Positions 4,783-46,874 of a stretch of DNA of 64,000 nt are shown piece after piece; position 1 is the first letter of the stretch, and each line of letters begins with the position of its first letter. The notes beneath the pieces are model-generated. The model did not search any database. It saw only the letters and a list, made by a program, of their open reading frames with translations, and was not told where the DNA came from. Source of the DNA: Pseudobdellovibrionaceae bacterium (lineage in GTDB: Bacteria; Bdellovibrionota; Bdellovibrionia; Bdellovibrionales; UBA1609). A program made the position numbers and the translations under genes. Location: positions 3,161 to 67,160 of the forward strand of contig JANXMF010000075.1 of the NCBI GenBank assembly GCA_025354795.1, written 5' to 3'.

Positions 4783-6642
4783 TTAGGAAGCGCCGAGTTT
4801 GGTTTCAGGCCCTTTTTTGAAGGGCAGACTGCATTCCTTGAACTCAAAGTCCTTTTTGCACGAGATCGCCTCTCGGATCGGGGCGGTAAAAAGCTCCTTG
4901 CGGCGCTGATCGCCCTCGGTGTGAGAATCAAAGATGTATTCCTTTTCCACCGAACTCTCTTCGGGAAAATGGCTGTCAAGTGACGGCTCAAGACATTGCC
5001 ACGAGCTGCTGGCCAAAAAGCGGTTCTGCCGCTCGGTCTGGTTTGGCACATCCATCAGCAATTGCGCCAGCGCGTAGCTGCCGATCACGTCCGCGAATCG
5101 CTCTACCGGCGTCGACGAAAAGCCCTCGGACTCAAGCAGGCTGCGGCTGGAAAATTCCCCCTCGATTCGTAGTGTCCGCTGTAGCACTTGATTGGTCATA
5201 TTCTTGGCCACTTCGATGGAGTCTTTGATGCGTTGGGTGTCGGCTTTGTCGGAACAGCGGTACTCGGCGGTGAAAAAAATCATGGTGGTGATCTCTTCAT
5301 CGATGGGCTCTTCGCCCTGGCTCCACAAATAGTAACTGCAGGGGTTGAGAAAATTGGGATTCTTCTGAGAACGGCCATTCGGAGTGGGGAGATCGCGTTT
5401 GGTGATACGTAGAAAACGATTGCTAGACGCTAACTCGGAAATGCGGTCACCGGTTAAGGTCCGAGCAAAGCGGGCGATCTCCTCCGGACCGGGAATTTTG
5501 GCGGTTTCGCGCCGTTTTAGACAGCGCTGAAATTCTGGAAGTTCGGTGGTATAGCCGTCGAGGCTCGTGAGGGACTCGTTGAAAGTGGTCTTAAAAGAAT
5601 TCCACCCGTCGCAAGAAAAAGATTTGGGCTGGCAAATGTCATGACGAAGCGAGCTCAGCTTTTGCCCGAACGCCGAGCGAATGGCAAACAGATATTGGCT
5701 GCGGTCAATGCCCAGCGCGTGGCCCATCTCGTGCGCCAGCGTTTGCAAAATATCTTCACTGTTAAAGTCGCCGGCGCAAATGGTGAGAATGTTAAGGTAG
5801 GTGTAGTAAAAGGCGTTGACGGTGGTGCTCGAGCACTCCTCATTAGAAATCGCTTGATAAGCGCCTGGCAAAACCAGTTTGATTTCGGAGATACGCTCGA
5901 GCCAGGTTGTGCGCGTGTTTTCGGGAATGTCGAGACGGGCAATCATGTGCAGATAACTGTTTTGCAGATGGGTAAAGCCCTGCTCGACCTTCTTCCAATT
6001 CTTATCATTGCGCCACAAGGCCTGCGAAATATCAGACACCAGACGCCGGCGCTGACGTCGGCGTTCAAGCTGCAACTCAAAGGGAATCAGATTTTCCGGC
6101 AGCTTGTGAAAGCCGGGATACTTGCCGTCCATACGTGCCAAAATGGCTTCGTTAAACGACATCGTCCATAAGTAGCCGAGTTCAAAATCCATCTGCTCCG
6201 AGGCTAGCCGCTGCTCGACCGACATCAAAGTGCGCGGCGCCCGCTCGAGAAAGGTTTTGAGTTTGGTAAAGTAATCGCTGCGCGACAATATCCTATAGAA
6301 ATCGCTTGGTAAACTTTTTTGGTTTTGTACTTTGGCCTGTGAGTAGCGGTAAAAAACATGGGAGAATTGGTTGTGGGTTTCGCCTTGTAAAACTTTGATC
6401 GAGCTTTGCAGATTTTTGACTTCTAAATTGCCGAGCACGTCGGGTGAGTAAAGGATATTGCAGTAGGTGTCGAGCATGGACTTACATTGCGGCATATTGC
6501 TGGCGGAATAAAATTCTTCCGACGAAAAAGTGCGCAAAACTTCCGGCGCTTTTGGGGCTTCCTGGGTGGCGCAGCTAACCCATAGCAACAGCGCGCTCAA
6601 TCCTCCTGCCAACCGCACTGTTTGACCGCGCACAATGTTCAT
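4783..6642 (-). CDS. secreted/lipoprotein zinc metalloprotease (HExxH), family unassigned
   Basis: It has a signal peptide with a lipobox-like LLWVSC and a single HEMGHALG zinc motif. I recognise no other family signature. Confidence 0.5.
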   Translation of the reverse strand: MNIVRGQTVRLAGGLSALLLWVSCATQEAPKAPEVLRTFSSEEFYSASNMPQCKSMLDTYCNILYSPDVLGNLEVKNLQSSIKVLQGETHNQFSHVFYRYSQAKVQNQKSLPSDFYRILSRSDYFTKLKTFLERAPRTLMSVEQRLASEQMDFELGYLWTMSFNEAILARMDGKYPGFHKLPENLIPFELQLERRRQRRRLVSDISQALWRNDKNWKKVEQGFTHLQNSYLHMIARLDIPENTRTTWLERISEIKLVLPGAYQAISNEECSSTTVNAFYYTYLNILTICAGDFNSEDILQTLAHEMGHALGIDRSQYLFAIRSAFGQKLSSLRHDICQPKSFSCDGWNSFKTTFNESLTSLDGYTTELPEFQRCLKRRETAKIPGPEEIARFARTLTGDRISELASSNRFLRITKRDLPTPNGRSQKNPNFLNPCSYYLWSQGEEPIDEEITTMIFFTAEYRCSDKADTQRIKDSIEVAKNMTNQVLQRTLRIEGEFSSRSLLESEGFSSTPVERFADVIGSYALAQLLMDVPNQTERQNRFLASSSWQCLEPSLDSHFPEESSVEKEYIFDSHTEGDQRRKELFTAPIREAISCKKDFEFKECSLPFKKGPETKLGAS

Positions 6643-26627: not shown

Positions 26628-26812
26628 GGAGGCGGGCTGGCTTGTACCGCCCGGATTTCTTGAATCTGCGCCTTACTCGTAGCTATTGAAAAATGACCGC
26701 CCCGAAATCGACCTAAAATTAGGCCAGGGACTCCATTTGGCGACATGAGGCCGCTGACGAATACATTGGTATCAAGGACGACGGTTGGCGGGATTGATCT
26801 CAGTGACGCCAC
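26624..26812 (-). pseudogene. truncated PIN-domain toxin (TA-system) remnant
   Basis: VVLDTNVFVSGLMSPNGVPGLIL is the N-terminal acidic-residue motif of PIN-family toxins. The ORF has only 62 codons, against about 130-140 expected, and runs into the astacin gene stop. Confidence 0.45.
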
Positions 26813-26858
26813 TTACCAAGCCGAGCGTATCCAAAATCCTACGATTTCAAAATTGAAG

Positions 26859-27199
26859 TGGTGGCCCCAGACTGACTTGAACAGTCACGTCCTTGCGGAC
26901 ACTGGATTTTCTTACCACTCCGGCTTTCGCCGTCTCTCACTTCGAGAGTTTGTGGTCTGGACTATGCCTTAACCGTTTGTCTTTCGACCGTTAGGTCCCG
27001 CTCGTCTAGTCTCTACACCTTCACTGACATTTTCTCGTCAGAGCTTGGCTCGGCATTAGCAATCTGAAAATTTCAGATAAGCCTCTACCGAATTTGGGCG
27101 GTTCTACGTCCTCAGTTTCCCGAGTCTACGCACTCAAATTTTGTCGGCTTAAAACCGACCGTCTGAGTCCAGCGCGTCTACCAATTCCACCATGGGGCC
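26859..27199 (-). tRNA. tRNA-Leu (inferred anticodon CAA) interrupted by a group I intron; exons 27199-27165 and 26910-26859
   Basis: The acceptor stem pairs perfectly (GGCCCCA/UGGGGCC) and is followed by A73 and an encoded CCA. The D-arm is GUGGAAUUGGUAGACGC and the anticodon stem is CUGGA/UCCAG. The long variable arm is GUCC-GCAA-GGAC and the T-arm is GACUG-UUCAAGU-CAGUC. The joined exons are 87 nt. Confidence 0.9.
26911..27164 (-). ncRNA. group I intron, IC3-like, 254 nt, no internal ORF
   Basis: It contains GCCGAGCCAAGC and GAAGGUGUAGAGACUAGACG, which match the conserved core I recall from the Azoarcus tRNA-Ile intron and the cyanobacterial/plastid trnL introns. The helices I can assign are listed below.
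- P2: CUCGG-GAAA-CUGAG
- P3: CCGC/GCGG
- P4: UUCGGUA/UGCCGAG
- P5: AUCUGAA/UUCAGAU
- P6: CUGAC/GUCAG
- P7: GACUA/UAGUC
- P9: hairpins CUCUC/GAGAG and CGGC-GAAA-GCCG
The intron ends in a terminal G, directly before the 3' exon AAAAUCC. Confidence 0.85.
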
Positions 27200-27339
27200 A
27201 CTTATAAATTTTGAAAGATCAAAGCATCCTGCGCTTAAGATCGGTAGATCCTTCTACCAATCTATTTTCTTTTTCTACCAGTCGTTTTGAATTCAAATTC
27301 AAACCAACCACTTACAGCCCAGGTAAAATGGCGACAGTC

Positions 27340-27378
27340 TTTTGAGTCCAGCGCGTCGACCAATTCCACCAAGAGGCC
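27340..27378 (-). pseudogene. 5' fragment of an intron-less tRNA-Leu(CAA) (positions 1-38 only)
   Basis: GGCCUCUUGGUGGAAUUGGUCGACGCGCUGGACUCAAAA matches the spliced 5' part of the neighbouring tRNA-Leu at 36 of 39 positions. It reads straight through the exon junction (CUC|AAAA) and then loses similarity. I found no matching 3' half. Confidence 0.8.
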
Positions 27379-27738
27379 TTGAAAGAGTGCCTGAGTTAAC
27401 CAAAGTGTAGGCATGGACTCAAGAAAAAGTCGGGGGCACGGTTTAAATAGTAGTTGGTATTTTGTCGGGCGTTTGCGTTTTCTTGGCGGGTGGTACGCTA
27501 CTCTATATATATAAAGCTAGCTTACTGACTTTACCTTTTTACACTCTCTGTCAGAAAGATACACAATAAATGGATGCCCAAGGGCCCCGGCCCATCTACC
27601 TACAAATGACATCAATTTTCCTACAAATTCAGTAAATTACACATGTACTTCCTACACCCCTGGCGGACTCGGCACGTGGCTTGCTTAGGGATCTACCCGT
27701 AACGAATGACTCGTTAACCTTTACCAGAGGGGTAGAAC

Positions 27739-44195: not shown

Positions 44196-45943
44196 ACGTG
44201 AAAATTCAAGTTCTCGCATCCCATGTCATTGATCAAATTGCCGCGGGTGAGGTGCTCGAGCGCCCCGCGAATCTGGTGAAGGAACTGGTGGAAAACAGTC
44301 TCGACGCGCAAGCCAGTCAAATCGATGTGACTTTCGAAGCGGGGGGACGCCAGCTTTTGGTGATCGACAACGGCCTCGGCATGACGCATGAGGATCTGCA
44401 GTTGGCGATTCACCGCCATGCCACGAGTAAAATCACCCACAGCGAGGATCTCTTTAAACTAAACAGTTTCGGTTTTCGCGGCGAAGCTTTGGCGAGTGTG
44501 GCGGCCGTCAGCCAACTGACGCTAACGGCGCGCGCGCGCGGCTCGGACCAGGGTTACCGTCTGCAAAATCATTTTGGCCAAGCCGGATCGCCGGCTCCGC
44601 TCTCGGCGTTGGAGGGCTGCGAAGTGCGCGTGACCGAACTTTTCGGCAACGTCCCCGCGCGCCTTAAATTTTTAAAATCAGATGCCGCTGAGAATGGGCA
44701 GATTAAAAATACCCTCAAGGCGCTGGCTCTAGCGCATGAGAGTGTCGGTTTCAGTGTGCGCTCCAAAGGTGAACTGCTCTTTCATTGGCCGGCTCAGCAG
44801 AGCTTCAAGGCGCGGGGTCAATTGGTGTTGGAGAATTCTGAATTGTTCGAAGGCGTCTATGAATGCGACGGCTTGCGCGCTGAGGTCTTGGTCAGTTCGC
44901 CCAAAAACGTCGGCAAGCTCAATCGCAATATGTGGTTTTTCGTACAGAACCGATGGGTACAAGATCGCAGTCTGGGCGCGGCGGTCATGGAAGCCTATCG
45001 CAATCTACTGATGCATGGTGAGTATCCAGCGGCTGTGGTGCGATTGTTCCTGTCACCTGAGGACGTGGACGTGAATGTTCACCCGGCTAAGTCGCAGGTG
45101 AAATTTCGCGACCCGCAACTGGCGTTTCGCGTAACGTGCCGGGCGGTTCGCGCGGTTTTAGAAAAATCGCCGTGGCTCAAGCAACAGGAAGATTTTGTGC
45201 CCGCGGTTCGTGCTGCAGCACCGGCGACTCCCACCGATTCCGACAATTTTAAATTTGAAGGGCGCGAGTTCGAACGCACGCAATATGCCACCAAGTCTTT
45301 TGCCGTAGCACAGGTGCGTGAGGTGCTCGAGCCCGTTCGCGGCACTTTAGAGGTTTTCCGCTGGGGGGACTTGCAAGTCATCGGACAACTCAACCACACA
45401 TACATTGTGGCGCAGACCGCGGAAGCGCTTTATTTAGTGGATCAACATGCGGCGCACGAGCGCGTAGTGTTCGAACGTTTGATGGAGAGTTTCAAAAACG
45501 GAAATATTGAAGTGCAAAATCTGTTGATGCCCTTGGTCTTCGATTTTCCGCGTGAAGAAATTGAAACCCTGCTCGCCCACCGCGAAGCTATTTCTAAGCT
45601 CGGAGTGAGCCTTGAGCAGATGGGGCCTGAAAGCATAGCGGTGCAAGCGATCCCCGTAATCGTCAAAGAAGCAGCGGTGAGCGAAGCGCTTCATAAATTG
45701 GCCTATGAAATGGCGAATTCGATCGGTGAGTTGGCGTGGGAAAAGGCGGTGGGCGATATCTTGGCTTCGATGGCTTGCCATTCGGTGGTGCGCGCAGGAC
45801 AAGCTCTGAGTGCAGGCGAGATGCAAAGCCTGCTTCAGCAGATGGATCAATATCCGCTCTCCAGCTTTTGTCCGCATGGACGCCCGGTGTTTAGCAAGCG
45901 CCGATTGGCCGACATCGACCGGGAGTTTGGCCGCATTGTCTAA
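44192..45943 (+). CDS. mutL: DNA mismatch repair protein MutL
   Basis: It has the GHKL ATPase motifs VIDQIAAGEVLERPANLVKELVENSLDA, DNGLGM and GFRGEAL, plus a C-terminal dimerisation domain. Confidence 0.95.
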   Translation: MNVKIQVLASHVIDQIAAGEVLERPANLVKELVENSLDAQASQIDVTFEAGGRQLLVIDNGLGMTHEDLQLAIHRHATSKITHSEDLFKLNSFGFRGEALASVAAVSQLTLTARARGSDQGYRLQNHFGQAGSPAPLSALEGCEVRVTELFGNVPARLKFLKSDAAENGQIKNTLKALALAHESVGFSVRSKGELLFHWPAQQSFKARGQLVLENSELFEGVYECDGLRAEVLVSSPKNVGKLNRNMWFFVQNRWVQDRSLGAAVMEAYRNLLMHGEYPAAVVRLFLSPEDVDVNVHPAKSQVKFRDPQLAFRVTCRAVRAVLEKSPWLKQQEDFVPAVRAAAPATPTDSDNFKFEGREFERTQYATKSFAVAQVREVLEPVRGTLEVFRWGDLQVIGQLNHTYIVAQTAEALYLVDQHAAHERVVFERLMESFKNGNIEVQNLLMPLVFDFPREEIETLLAHREAISKLGVSLEQMGPESIAVQAIPVIVKEAAVSEALHKLAYEMANSIGELAWEKAVGDILASMACHSVVRAGQALSAGEMQSLLQQMDQYPLSSFCPHGRPVFSKRRLADIDREFGRIV

Positions 45944-46874
45944 GTACTATCCGTTTATCCTGGTGGTGGGTCCGACCGGCGCCGGAAAATCGGCGCTGGG
46001 TTTGCGCCTAGCGGAAAAATATAAGGCCGCGATATTAAACTGTGATAGTTTACAAGCCTATCGGCGTCTCGACATTGGCACTGCCAAACCGTCGCTTCAG
46101 GAGCGGGCCCGGGTTCCCCATTTCCTGTTCGATGTTTTAGAACCCGGCGCGGAATTCACCGCCGGTGATTTTCGCCGTATGGCGCTTGAGGTGCTCGAAC
46201 GCGAACTGCGGTCGGCCCCGGTGATCGGTGTGGGTGGCAGCGGATTTTATATCCAGGCCCTCGAAAAGGGCATGTACGATGTGGTTAAACCCGATCCTGA
46301 GATTGAAAAAAAATTGCGGGCCGAACTTGCTTCTGAGGGGCTGCCGTCAATGTACTCGCGTCTGCAGAATCTCGATCCGGTCCATGCCGAAGTCTTGAGT
46401 CCCAATGACTCCTATCGGATTCTGCGAGCCCTAGTCATTATCCAAGACAGCGGTAAAAAAGTGAGCGAACTGCGCGCCGGAATGCCGGTGATCGAATTTC
46501 CATATCCGCTTTTCAAGCTTGGTCTCGCGCCCTCGCGGGAGTGGCTGCTTCCGCGCATCGTGCAGCGAACGCAAGAAATGTTGCGACGAGGAATGCTCGA
46601 TGAGGTCCGGGCACTGCGCGCGGAGGGCTTCGGGACTTGGCCGGCACTCAAGAGCATCGGCTACCGCGAATGCGGAATATTTTTAGACGGAAGCTTGGCC
46701 GAGATTCAGCTCGCGCCCCTGATCGTCGAAAAAACCATGCAGCTCGCGAAAAAACAAAAAACTTGGTTTAAGCGCGATCAACGGATTCGCTGGCTCGGCG
46801 TAGACAACCCTGAATCCGAGGCCTGCGCTTTCTTGACAGACACCGCTAAAATCTCCATCATAGCCGAGAGGTGA
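45936..46874 (+). CDS. miaA: tRNA dimethylallyltransferase
   Basis: It has the P-loop VVGPTGAGKSAL and the DSLQAYRRLDIGTAKP motif. I prefer the TTG at 45936, which lies 10 nt after GGGAG. The ORF opening at 45810 lies inside mutL. Confidence 0.9.
   Translation: MSKYYPFILVVGPTGAGKSALGLRLAEKYKAAILNCDSLQAYRRLDIGTAKPSLQERARVPHFLFDVLEPGAEFTAGDFRRMALEVLERELRSAPVIGVGGSGFYIQALEKGMYDVVKPDPEIEKKLRAELASEGLPSMYSRLQNLDPVHAEVLSPNDSYRILRALVIIQDSGKKVSELRAGMPVIEFPYPLFKLGLAPSREWLLPRIVQRTQEMLRRGMLDEVRALRAEGFGTWPALKSIGYRECGIFLDGSLAEIQLAPLIVEKTMQLAKKQKTWFKRDQRIRWLGVDNPESEACAFLTDTAKISIIAER

Follow-up and report, generated by a model that had tools for sequence, protein, structure and literature searches.

In a 64-kb stretch of a Pseudobdellovibrionaceae genome (contig JANXMF010000075.1, positions 3,161 to 67,160; hereafter the window), a tRNA-Leu(CAA) gene is very probably split between anticodon nucleotides 34 and 35 by a functional group I ribozyme intron, an IC3-type element without an open reading frame (ORF), on an allele that replaced an intronless gene at the same locus. 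Judged by its sequence, the intron is a member of the family known from the cyanobacterial and plastid trnL(UAA) genes. Group I introns in bacterial tRNA genes outside the cyanobacteria have been known since the early 1990s, and the interest of the present case lies not in the occurrence of a trnL-type intron outside that phylum but in the stumps of intronless tRNA genes that repeatedly accompany such introns and in a conserved C–G pair at the cleavage site.

The split tRNA-Leu(CAA) gene and its intron

Read directly over 26700-27400, the minus strand runs from GGCCCCAUGGUGGAAUUGGUAGACGCGCUGGACUC through 254 nt to AAAAUCCAGUGUCCGCAAGGACGUGACUGUUCAAGUCAGUCUGGGGCCACCA. An intron-aware tRNA search, which the original prediction had named as a check, gives the same picture: with intron detection on, ARAGORN places a 254-nt intron after gene position 35 of a tRNA-Leu(caa), and the joined exons of the split gene (26859-27199, minus strand) form an 87-nt class II cloverleaf. 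Default ARAGORN, run on the whole window, calls no tRNA. The features of a bacterial class II tRNA-Leu are present (long variable arm, Leu anticodon and encoded CCA), the acceptor stem of the intron-bearing gene is self-consistent (GGCCCCA/UGGGGCC) and its T stem reads GACUG. The tRNA-Leu halves, coordinates and sequence strings given in the original prediction proved right to the base. In transcript order, the parts of the gene are as follows.

27165-27199, minus strand: 5′ exon of tRNA-Leu(CAA), tRNA positions 1–34, ending ...CUGGACUC (ARAGORN intron mode)
26911-27164, minus strand: group I intron, 254 nt, without an ORF; begins AGACGG and finishes GGUAAG, with the terminal G (ωG) at 26911
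27162-27168, minus strand: P1 5′ strand, ACUC-AGA, with cleavage after C34 at 27165; partner UUUGAGU at 27132-27138
27143-27159, minus strand: P1-loop hairpin, GUCGG-UUUUAAG-CCGAC, from a single-sequence fold; peripheral, in Bdellovibrionota introns only
27132-27138, minus strand: internal guide sequence, UUUGAGU; the 5′ exon pairs with GAGU, the intron AGA with UUU
27105-27132, minus strand: P2, outer stem UGCGU/ACGUA, inner stem CUCGG/CUGAG, GAAA tetraloop; P2 columns covary
27096-27101, minus strand: P3 5′ strand, CCGCCC; partner GAGCGG at 26998-27003; forms a pseudoknot with P7
27049-27092, minus strand: P4-P5 domain, P4 UUCGGUA/UGCCGAG around the P5 hairpin at 27058-27083
27017-27049, minus strand: P6/P6a, conserved GCCAAGC and hairpin CUGAC...GUCAG; four pairs changed on both sides
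27007-27013, minus strand: P7 5′ strand, G[A]GACUA with a bulged A; partner UAGUCC at 26959-26964; 100% paired, two covarying pairs
26998-27003, minus strand: P3 3′ strand, GAGCGG; partner of CCGCCC at 27096-27101
26971-26997, minus strand: P8, inner stem GUC-GAAA-GAC with a GAAA cap
26959-26970, minus strand: J8/7 (AAGGCA) and P7 3′ strand (UAGUCC); AAGG.AUAGUCC is kept in Nostoc and all homologues
26914-26956, minus strand: P9 three-way element, ACCAC/GUGGU, with P9a CUCUC/GAGAG and P9b CGGC-GAAA-GCCG; five of five P9b pairs covary
26859-26910, minus strand: 3′ exon, AAAAUCCAG..., with variable arm, T arm, acceptor 3′ strand and encoded ACCA

Homology and folding both identify the intervening RNA as a group I intron. 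In a targeted 1.1-kb search, the model RF00028 (Intron_gpI) matches 26941-27161 on the minus strand over its full length (30 bits, E = 1.7e-5); blastn comparisons with Bdellovibrionota homologues give E values of 1e-57 to 1e-76, and the family pattern has an expected count of 0.00 in a shuffled window. The predicted folding energy of the precursor is −124 kcal/mol (z = −5.05 against 100 shuffles). To obtain a consensus structure, we aligned the window sequence with 28 homologues (29 sequences in all), applied RNAalifold and added P3 as a pseudoknot. RNAalifold recovers the four tRNA arms together with P1, P2, P4, P5, P6, P7, P8, P9, P9a and P9b. With P3 included, 97.0% of the structure cells in the alignment pair, against 35–44% when the partners are slid, and 49 pairs are changed on both sides, against 16–23 with slid partners; the observed pairing and covariation values were matched in none of 500 shuffles.

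The core helices P3–P8 are present and 92–100% paired, and compensatory changes occur in P3, P4, P5, P6, P7 and P8. In P3, for example, alignment pair 107/216 is C–G, U–A or G–C, and pair 108/215 is G–C or C–G. The window copy has every helix from P1 to P9, the P3/P7 pseudoknot included, and its P2 shows a shifted register and a 3-nt insertion relative to the other aligned sequences; a metagenome pattern search for this particular P2 variant returned no matches. The P1 pairs are invariant across the alignment and hence have no covariation support of their own, and the stem of the P1-loop hairpin is compensated between Bdellovibrionota species (GUCGG/CCGAC, GCUGAC/GUCAGC and GUUGG/CCAAC). A C·A mismatch in P3 (27097 against 27002, minus strand) recurs in all 14 Bdellovibrionota introns, the other phyla having U–G or C–G at this position, and may represent a protonated wobble or a tolerated defect. 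P2, P8 and P9b each end in a GAAA loop and P5 lacks a P5abc extension, being a simple hairpin, which together give a compact architecture of IC3 type; the subgroup label itself is carried over from published homologues. No endonuclease ORF is found within the 254 nt. These helices, together with homology to the Nostoc and Acidobacteriota introns, bear out the earlier assignment to an ORF-less, IC3-type group I intron, and the helices proposed at that time (P3 as CCGC/GCGG, P4, and P2 and P9 with GAAA loops) hold up, with covariation among the homologues.

The exons carry a signal of their own. Across 29 homologues, the acceptor, D and anticodon stems of the 5′ exon covary, and so do all the tRNA arms. 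The anticodon stem spans the intron and closes only after splicing, and four of its five pairs show compensatory changes in the 29-sequence alignment; this covariation across the intron means that the two exon halves are evolving together as a single functional tRNA. As a separate observation, the window contains a gene for a MiaA-type tRNA isopentenyltransferase (45810-46874, plus strand), and the A36-A37-A38 context used by this enzyme exists in the present tRNA only once the exons are ligated.

These parts suggest a conventional splicing pathway. The whole gene would be transcribed as a single precursor, in which ACUC of the 5′ exon would pair with GAGU of the guide to form P1, while the P3–P8 core would fold with the GAAA tetraloops on P2, P8 and P9b as braces. 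A free guanosine in P7, which we take to be the guanosine-binding helix (G site) by analogy with solved group I introns, would attack the C34–A35 bond. We infer that UUU of the guide then pairs with AAA of the 3′ exon to form P10, upon which the terminal G (26911) would swap into the G site. Exon ligation would generate CUCAAAA in the anticodon loop, and ordinary tRNA end-processing would follow. Other splice registers were considered and rejected: a cut after U33 leaves a 6-nt anticodon loop, no alternative guide register pairs and only C34/A35 is workable.

A C–G pair at the cleavage site and the spread of CAA-hosted introns

The host isoacceptor sets the identity of the cleavage-site pair. 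With CAA as the required anticodon, the last nucleotide of the 5′ exon is C, and it forms a Watson–Crick C34–G pair in place of U–G. The U–G wobble at group I 5′ cleavage sites is near-universal rather than absolute. The C–G pair (alignment pair 35/71) is present in all 29 aligned sequences, a count to be read with the knowledge that the search pattern demanded that pair. UAA-hosted relatives have the same guide, UUGAGU, which gives U–G; thus, the exon change from U34 to C alone separates the two states. UAA- and CAA-hosted introns are intermixed on a crude neighbour-joining tree that has no support values, and the published Acidobacteriota UAA introns nest among the CAA introns of Binatia, Limnocylindria and Acidiferrales. 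This interleaving suggests repeated switches between UAA and CAA isoacceptor genes.

Genes of the CAA type are widely scattered. Searching GTDB species genomes with a pattern that combined a 5′ exon ending in CTC with the P1–P3 signature of the family, we found tRNA-Leu(CAA) with this intron in about 30 genomes, whose hosts belong to Bdellovibrionota, Coriobacteriia, Binatia, Limnocylindria, Stellaceae and other Alphaproteobacteria, ‘delta proteobacteria’ and Acidiferrales. A similar pattern applied to metagenomes gave 37 matches, 35 of them tRNA-Leu(CAA) genes with this intron, so that genomes and metagenomes together hold about 65 C–G introns in at least six lineages. On one ‘delta proteobacterium’ contig, CAWDMI010000002.1, three intron-bearing tRNA-Leu(CAA) copies lie within a few kilobases (L148 4306-4647, L148 7226-7571 and L142 near 7933).

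Several candidates were discarded. About a dozen genome matches, in Bacteroidota and others, are chance occurrences inside protein-coding genes. An ARAGORN Leu(caa) call in L059 is actually a class I tRNA with a CAU loop. A long ‘intron’ in L137, considered as an ORF-bearing form, is a truncated copy (5440-5680) fused to unrelated DNA: the 5′ exon and the intron continue as far as the P9 5′ strand, after which come unrelated DNA and a membrane-protein gene on the other strand, and ARAGORN had wrongly linked this 5′ part to a distant tRNA 3′ half.

The same core also occurs in viral contigs, where a scan with the core 17-mer GGTGTAGAGACTAGACG gave at least 120 matches. Among the 120 viral matches listed, about 90 are intron-bearing tRNA genes, and about 44 are tRNA-Leu(UAA) genes with introns plainly homologous to that of the window. 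At least 19 IMG/VR contigs (L004, L011, L013, L016 and 15 others) carry an intron of the same core family, roughly 196 nt long, in a tRNA that ARAGORN labels ‘Tyr(ata)’; both this label and the insertion site reported for it are probably wrong. Introns of this core family are very common in phage-like contigs, among the matches listed.

Stumps of intronless tRNA genes and the origin of the split allele

The locus is chromosomal, with an astacin protease gene on one side and an OMP gene, rimP, nusA and infB on the other. NusA has one 100% identical NCBI entry, and its other best matches are 86–94% identical; all best matches that bear an organism name are metagenome-assembled genomes (MAGs) of Bdellovibrionales or Bdellovibrionaceae. 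The order tRNA-OMP-rimP-nusA is common to the window and Bdellovibrionota MAGs. By these protein matches and this gene order, the host is a Bdellovibrionales bacterium and not a cyanobacterium. Immediately upstream of the split gene lie two further elements.

27340-27378, minus strand: stump of an intronless tRNA-Leu(CAA), 39 nt, tRNA positions 1–38, ending CUCAAAA and followed by unrelated sequence
27200-27339, minus strand: leader, 140 nt, between the stump and the intron-bearing gene

The stump, 140 nt upstream of the intron-bearing gene, reads through the anticodon loop without an intron. It is identical at 38 of 39 positions to the 5′ half of the intact intronless gene of the relatives L173/L174, including the acceptor strand GGCCUCU, and differs from the intron-bearing 5′ exon of the window at 3 of 35 positions (two acceptor-stem differences, the third within the D-loop). 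Intact intronless tRNA-Leu(CAA) genes occupy the same spot beside the OMP gene in L173/L174 (NusA 92% identical) and in L175 (91%). On the right side of the stump, gene order agrees with that of L174 (27671-38229); left of the tRNA, this agreement is gone. Because the stump matches the L173 gene, the acceptor and T stems differ and synteny breaks at this point, we conclude that an intron-bearing allele displaced the native gene and brought its own leader with it. The comparison indicates that the split allele is most likely not ancestral in this genome and took the place of an intronless tRNA-Leu(CAA).

The leader itself is less readily compared. By eye, its 3′ part (GCUUUGAUCUUUCAAAAU) resembles a motif, (G/A)UUCUUUGA(U/A)AAUUGAA, upstream of stump-free Bdellovibrionota intron genes; MAFFT gave no in-register alignment of the two. 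The leader contains a hairpin, GGUAGA-AGGA-UCUACC, of 6 bp, extendable to 10 bp, at 27243-27258, which the scan rated as terminator-like on the opposite strand only. On the tRNA strand, a promoter and terminator scan of the intergenic region gave no useful result. About 15 nt upstream of the stump, at 27394-27422 on the minus strand, TTGAGT and TTAACT are separated by a 17-nt spacer, and TCTTGAGT is conserved at equal distance upstream of the L173 intronless gene, a feature that the consensus scan did not flag. This TTGAGT/TTAACT element is a candidate for the native promoter of the tRNA, in which case it would now drive transcription of the stump and perhaps of the entire precursor.

Comparable stumps occur elsewhere. 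We searched 130 intron-bearing tRNA genes and found stumps only beside genes of the CAA type, with none beside the 48 UAA-type genes among them. The position at which the stump ends, relative to the insertion site, falls within a narrow range.

Window: +4
L130/L149/L155/L190/L202 (Pseudobdellovibrionaceae and metagenomes): +4
L189/L207/L211: +5
L129/L184/L197/L203 (Stellaceae type): +6

In L189, the stump allele and the exon of the adjacent gene differ at four positions. The four groups differ in stump allele, spacer and junction, and on these grounds they appear to be independent.

Several observations weigh against a working intron in a replaced gene. Splicing of the window intron is predicted, and a second, intronless tRNA-Leu(CAA) could be present elsewhere, the view being limited to 64 kb of the genome. 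The curated cut-off of RF00028 is 50 bits, so the window intron falls below it and has no gathering-level listing, and the copy carries both the C·A mismatch in P3 and a U·U mismatch in P6. In mutagenesis of the Tetrahymena ribozyme, C–G at this position reportedly slowed the first step, and the intron might therefore splice slowly. Moreover, the genome and metagenome patterns demanded CTCA and TTGAG, which inflated the C–G count by design; the independent evidence is the occurrence of CAA-type genes in many lineages and the covariation of the exons, not that count. The low RF00028 score of 30 bits, the C–G in place of U–G and the single mismatches in P3 and P6, along with the position of the window intron as the most divergent of the Bdellovibrionota clade on the crude tree, would fit a decayed remnant that no longer splices, in which case the split gene would be a tRNA pseudogene. 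We regard this as very improbable. All helices are intact, the window compensates its own P2 variant, the core strings are identical to those of the homologues, and a sub-threshold score is usual for the family: 11 of 12 clear homologues lie below the RF00028 cut-off and the remaining one reaches 50.8 bits. About 65 genes keep the C–G pair, and their exons covary as those of a working tRNA would; the native intronless gene has been destroyed, leaving this copy as the local tRNA-Leu(CAA). A truly decayed copy, that of L137, looks otherwise, being cut off within P9.

The history of the locus could also be told differently. An island inserted by a tyrosine integrase at the tRNA anticodon loop could have left the stump and the broken gene order, with no relation to intron mobility, and synteny with close relatives does stop exactly at the tRNA; tRNA genes, anticodon loops included, are classic integrase targets. 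Such islands, however, normally restore the gene by providing its 3′ part and leave a 3′ fragment, whereas here a 5′ fragment is followed by a complete gene 140 nt away. Among about 39 larger ORFs scanned in the window, none has an integrase or homing-endonuclease domain; no 3′-half repeat was found, and within the window the native 3′ half is matched by the current 3′ exon alone. The left flank consists of ordinary chromosomal genes, and the architecture occurs only beside intron-bearing CAA genes, in four apparently independent groups. We therefore consider an integrase island unlikely. It is somewhat less plausible still that the intron-bearing gene is ancestral and vertically inherited, L173–L175 having become intronless by precise intron loss. 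In keeping with such descent, 14 other Bdellovibrionota species have the intron gene, their introns form one clade on the crude tree, and the gene adjoins rimP-nusA in L130, L143, L145 and L168, those with long enough flanks. Yet the window retains an intronless stump with the native promoter-side flank and the L173 acceptor, and the acceptor and T stems of the intron-bearing gene differ from these, so that two alleles must have met at the locus. The differing acceptor stems also make it unlikely that the stump is a retro-copy of the spliced tRNA of the adjacent gene.

Replacement of an intronless gene by an intron-bearing allele thus remains our preferred account, and we put forward, more tentatively, a process that could drive it, which we denote replacement homing. 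In this proposal, ORF-less tRNA-Leu introns would spread as a site-specific double-strand break 4–6 nt downstream of the insertion site destroys an intronless tRNA-Leu(CAA) and repair captures a whole intron-bearing allele plus its leader; the captured allele would be immune, its target site being split by the intron. On this view, the stump at 27340-27378 and its counterparts in three other lineages would be the fossil traces that such events left behind. The same tentative proposal holds that the ribozyme works in cells with C–G at the cleavage site. If true, a group I ribozyme operates in the cells of several phyla with a Watson–Crick pair at this position. The roughly 65 natural C–G introns form a ready series on how much the U–G wobble matters in vivo, since a one-base change, C34U, would turn each of them into the canonical form. 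The movement of ORF-less bacterial tRNA introns has previously been inferred mainly from their patchy distribution; here, the intronless allele (in relatives), the stump and the complete foreign allele can be compared side by side, and the break position recurs in four lineages, which would constitute unusually direct fossil evidence for such movement.

Comparison with known tRNA introns

The 34/35 position of tRNA-Leu is a well-characterised insertion site (PMC13011429), and a 2026 survey of 4,934 complete genomes put on record 333 intron-bearing tRNAs in 18 bacterial phyla, 81% of them with introns of subgroup IC (PMC13011429). Against this record, the novelty claimed in the original prediction was overrated. 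It had also equated the insertion with that of plastid and cyanobacterial trnL: the 34/35 site is indeed the same, whereas the equivalence ends at the anticodon, which is CAA, and at the splice-site pair, which is C–G instead of U–G. Its expectation of a non-cyanobacterial host agrees with the Bdellovibrionota affinity of NusA and of the gene order, and its alternative of a horizontal transfer or a relative of the trnL intron fits both the homology to the Nostoc intron and the replacement of an intronless allele.

Interrupted tRNA-Leu(UAA) genes have been described in Beggiatoa and Thiomargarita, and the tRNAscan-SE 2.0 paper notes that group I introns in bacterial tRNA genes cause ‘missing’ tRNAs. 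The present gene is missed by both default tRNA detection and curated Rfam, and therefore tRNA-Leu(CAA) will look absent from genomes of Bdellovibrionota and of several other phyla. In the portion of Table S5 of PMC13011429 that runs from Acidobacteriota to Desulfobacterota, there are Leu(TAA) 34/35 rows, no Leu(CAA) 34/35 rows and no Bdellovibrionota, and a full-text literature search on CAA or Bdellovibrio tRNA introns returned nothing specific. The intron thus appears to belong to a known family, its unusual aspects being the CAA host isoacceptor and the C–G splice-site pair, for which we found no description in the literature.

The closest published counterparts are the IC3 introns at 34/35 of Acidobacteriota tRNA-Leu(TAA) genes, as far as they are represented in that portion of Table S5 (PMC13011429). 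One of them is 67% identical to the split gene over the whole gene, and they have in common with it the core strings cccgagccaagcc and gaaggtgtagagactagacgg, the guide, and a P9 GAAA hairpin before the terminal ...ggtaag that precedes AAAATCC; they are likewise non-cyanobacterial and ORF-less. In contrast to the window gene, they have a UAA anticodon and a U at the splice site. The tRNA-Leu(UAA) precursor of Nostoc PCC 7120, used as the positive control for self-splicing in vitro (PMC13011429), is more distant. The Nostoc (Anabaena) PCC 7120 intron occupies the same 34/35 site, is followed by the same 3′ exon start, AAAAUCC, uses a UUGAG guide and is ORF-less and of similar length (249 nt, against 254 nt here); its P2 and P9 bear GAAA loops, and it contains the core strings GAGCCAAGC and GGAAGGUG.AGAGACU.GACG...AGUCC. 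Over 308 aligned positions, however, the two are 56% identical, the UAA host gives a U–G pair, and the Nostoc intron has a long P6 extension and no P1-loop hairpin. It also differs at two core positions from the core strings named in the original prediction, which published IC3 tRNA-Leu(UAA) introns have.

The intron of Azoarcus tRNA-Ile(CAU) is presumably a further relative, a compact IC3 intron with the same core strings, GCCGAGCCAAGC and GAAGGUGUAGAGACUAGACG, and GAAA in L2 and L9; it would differ in its host tRNA, in its site after the anticodon, in its U–G pair and in its length of about 205 nt. For the C–G pair itself, the nearest parallel is found in a 1995 paper by Hur and Waring (Nucleic Acids Res 23:4466), which reportedly describes natural C–G pairs at group I 5′ splice sites. 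There, too, C–G would stand in place of U–G, with the C presumably fixed by a coding need of the exon; those cases are reportedly two individual introns, whereas the pair described here characterizes a set of bacterial tRNA introns across several phyla.

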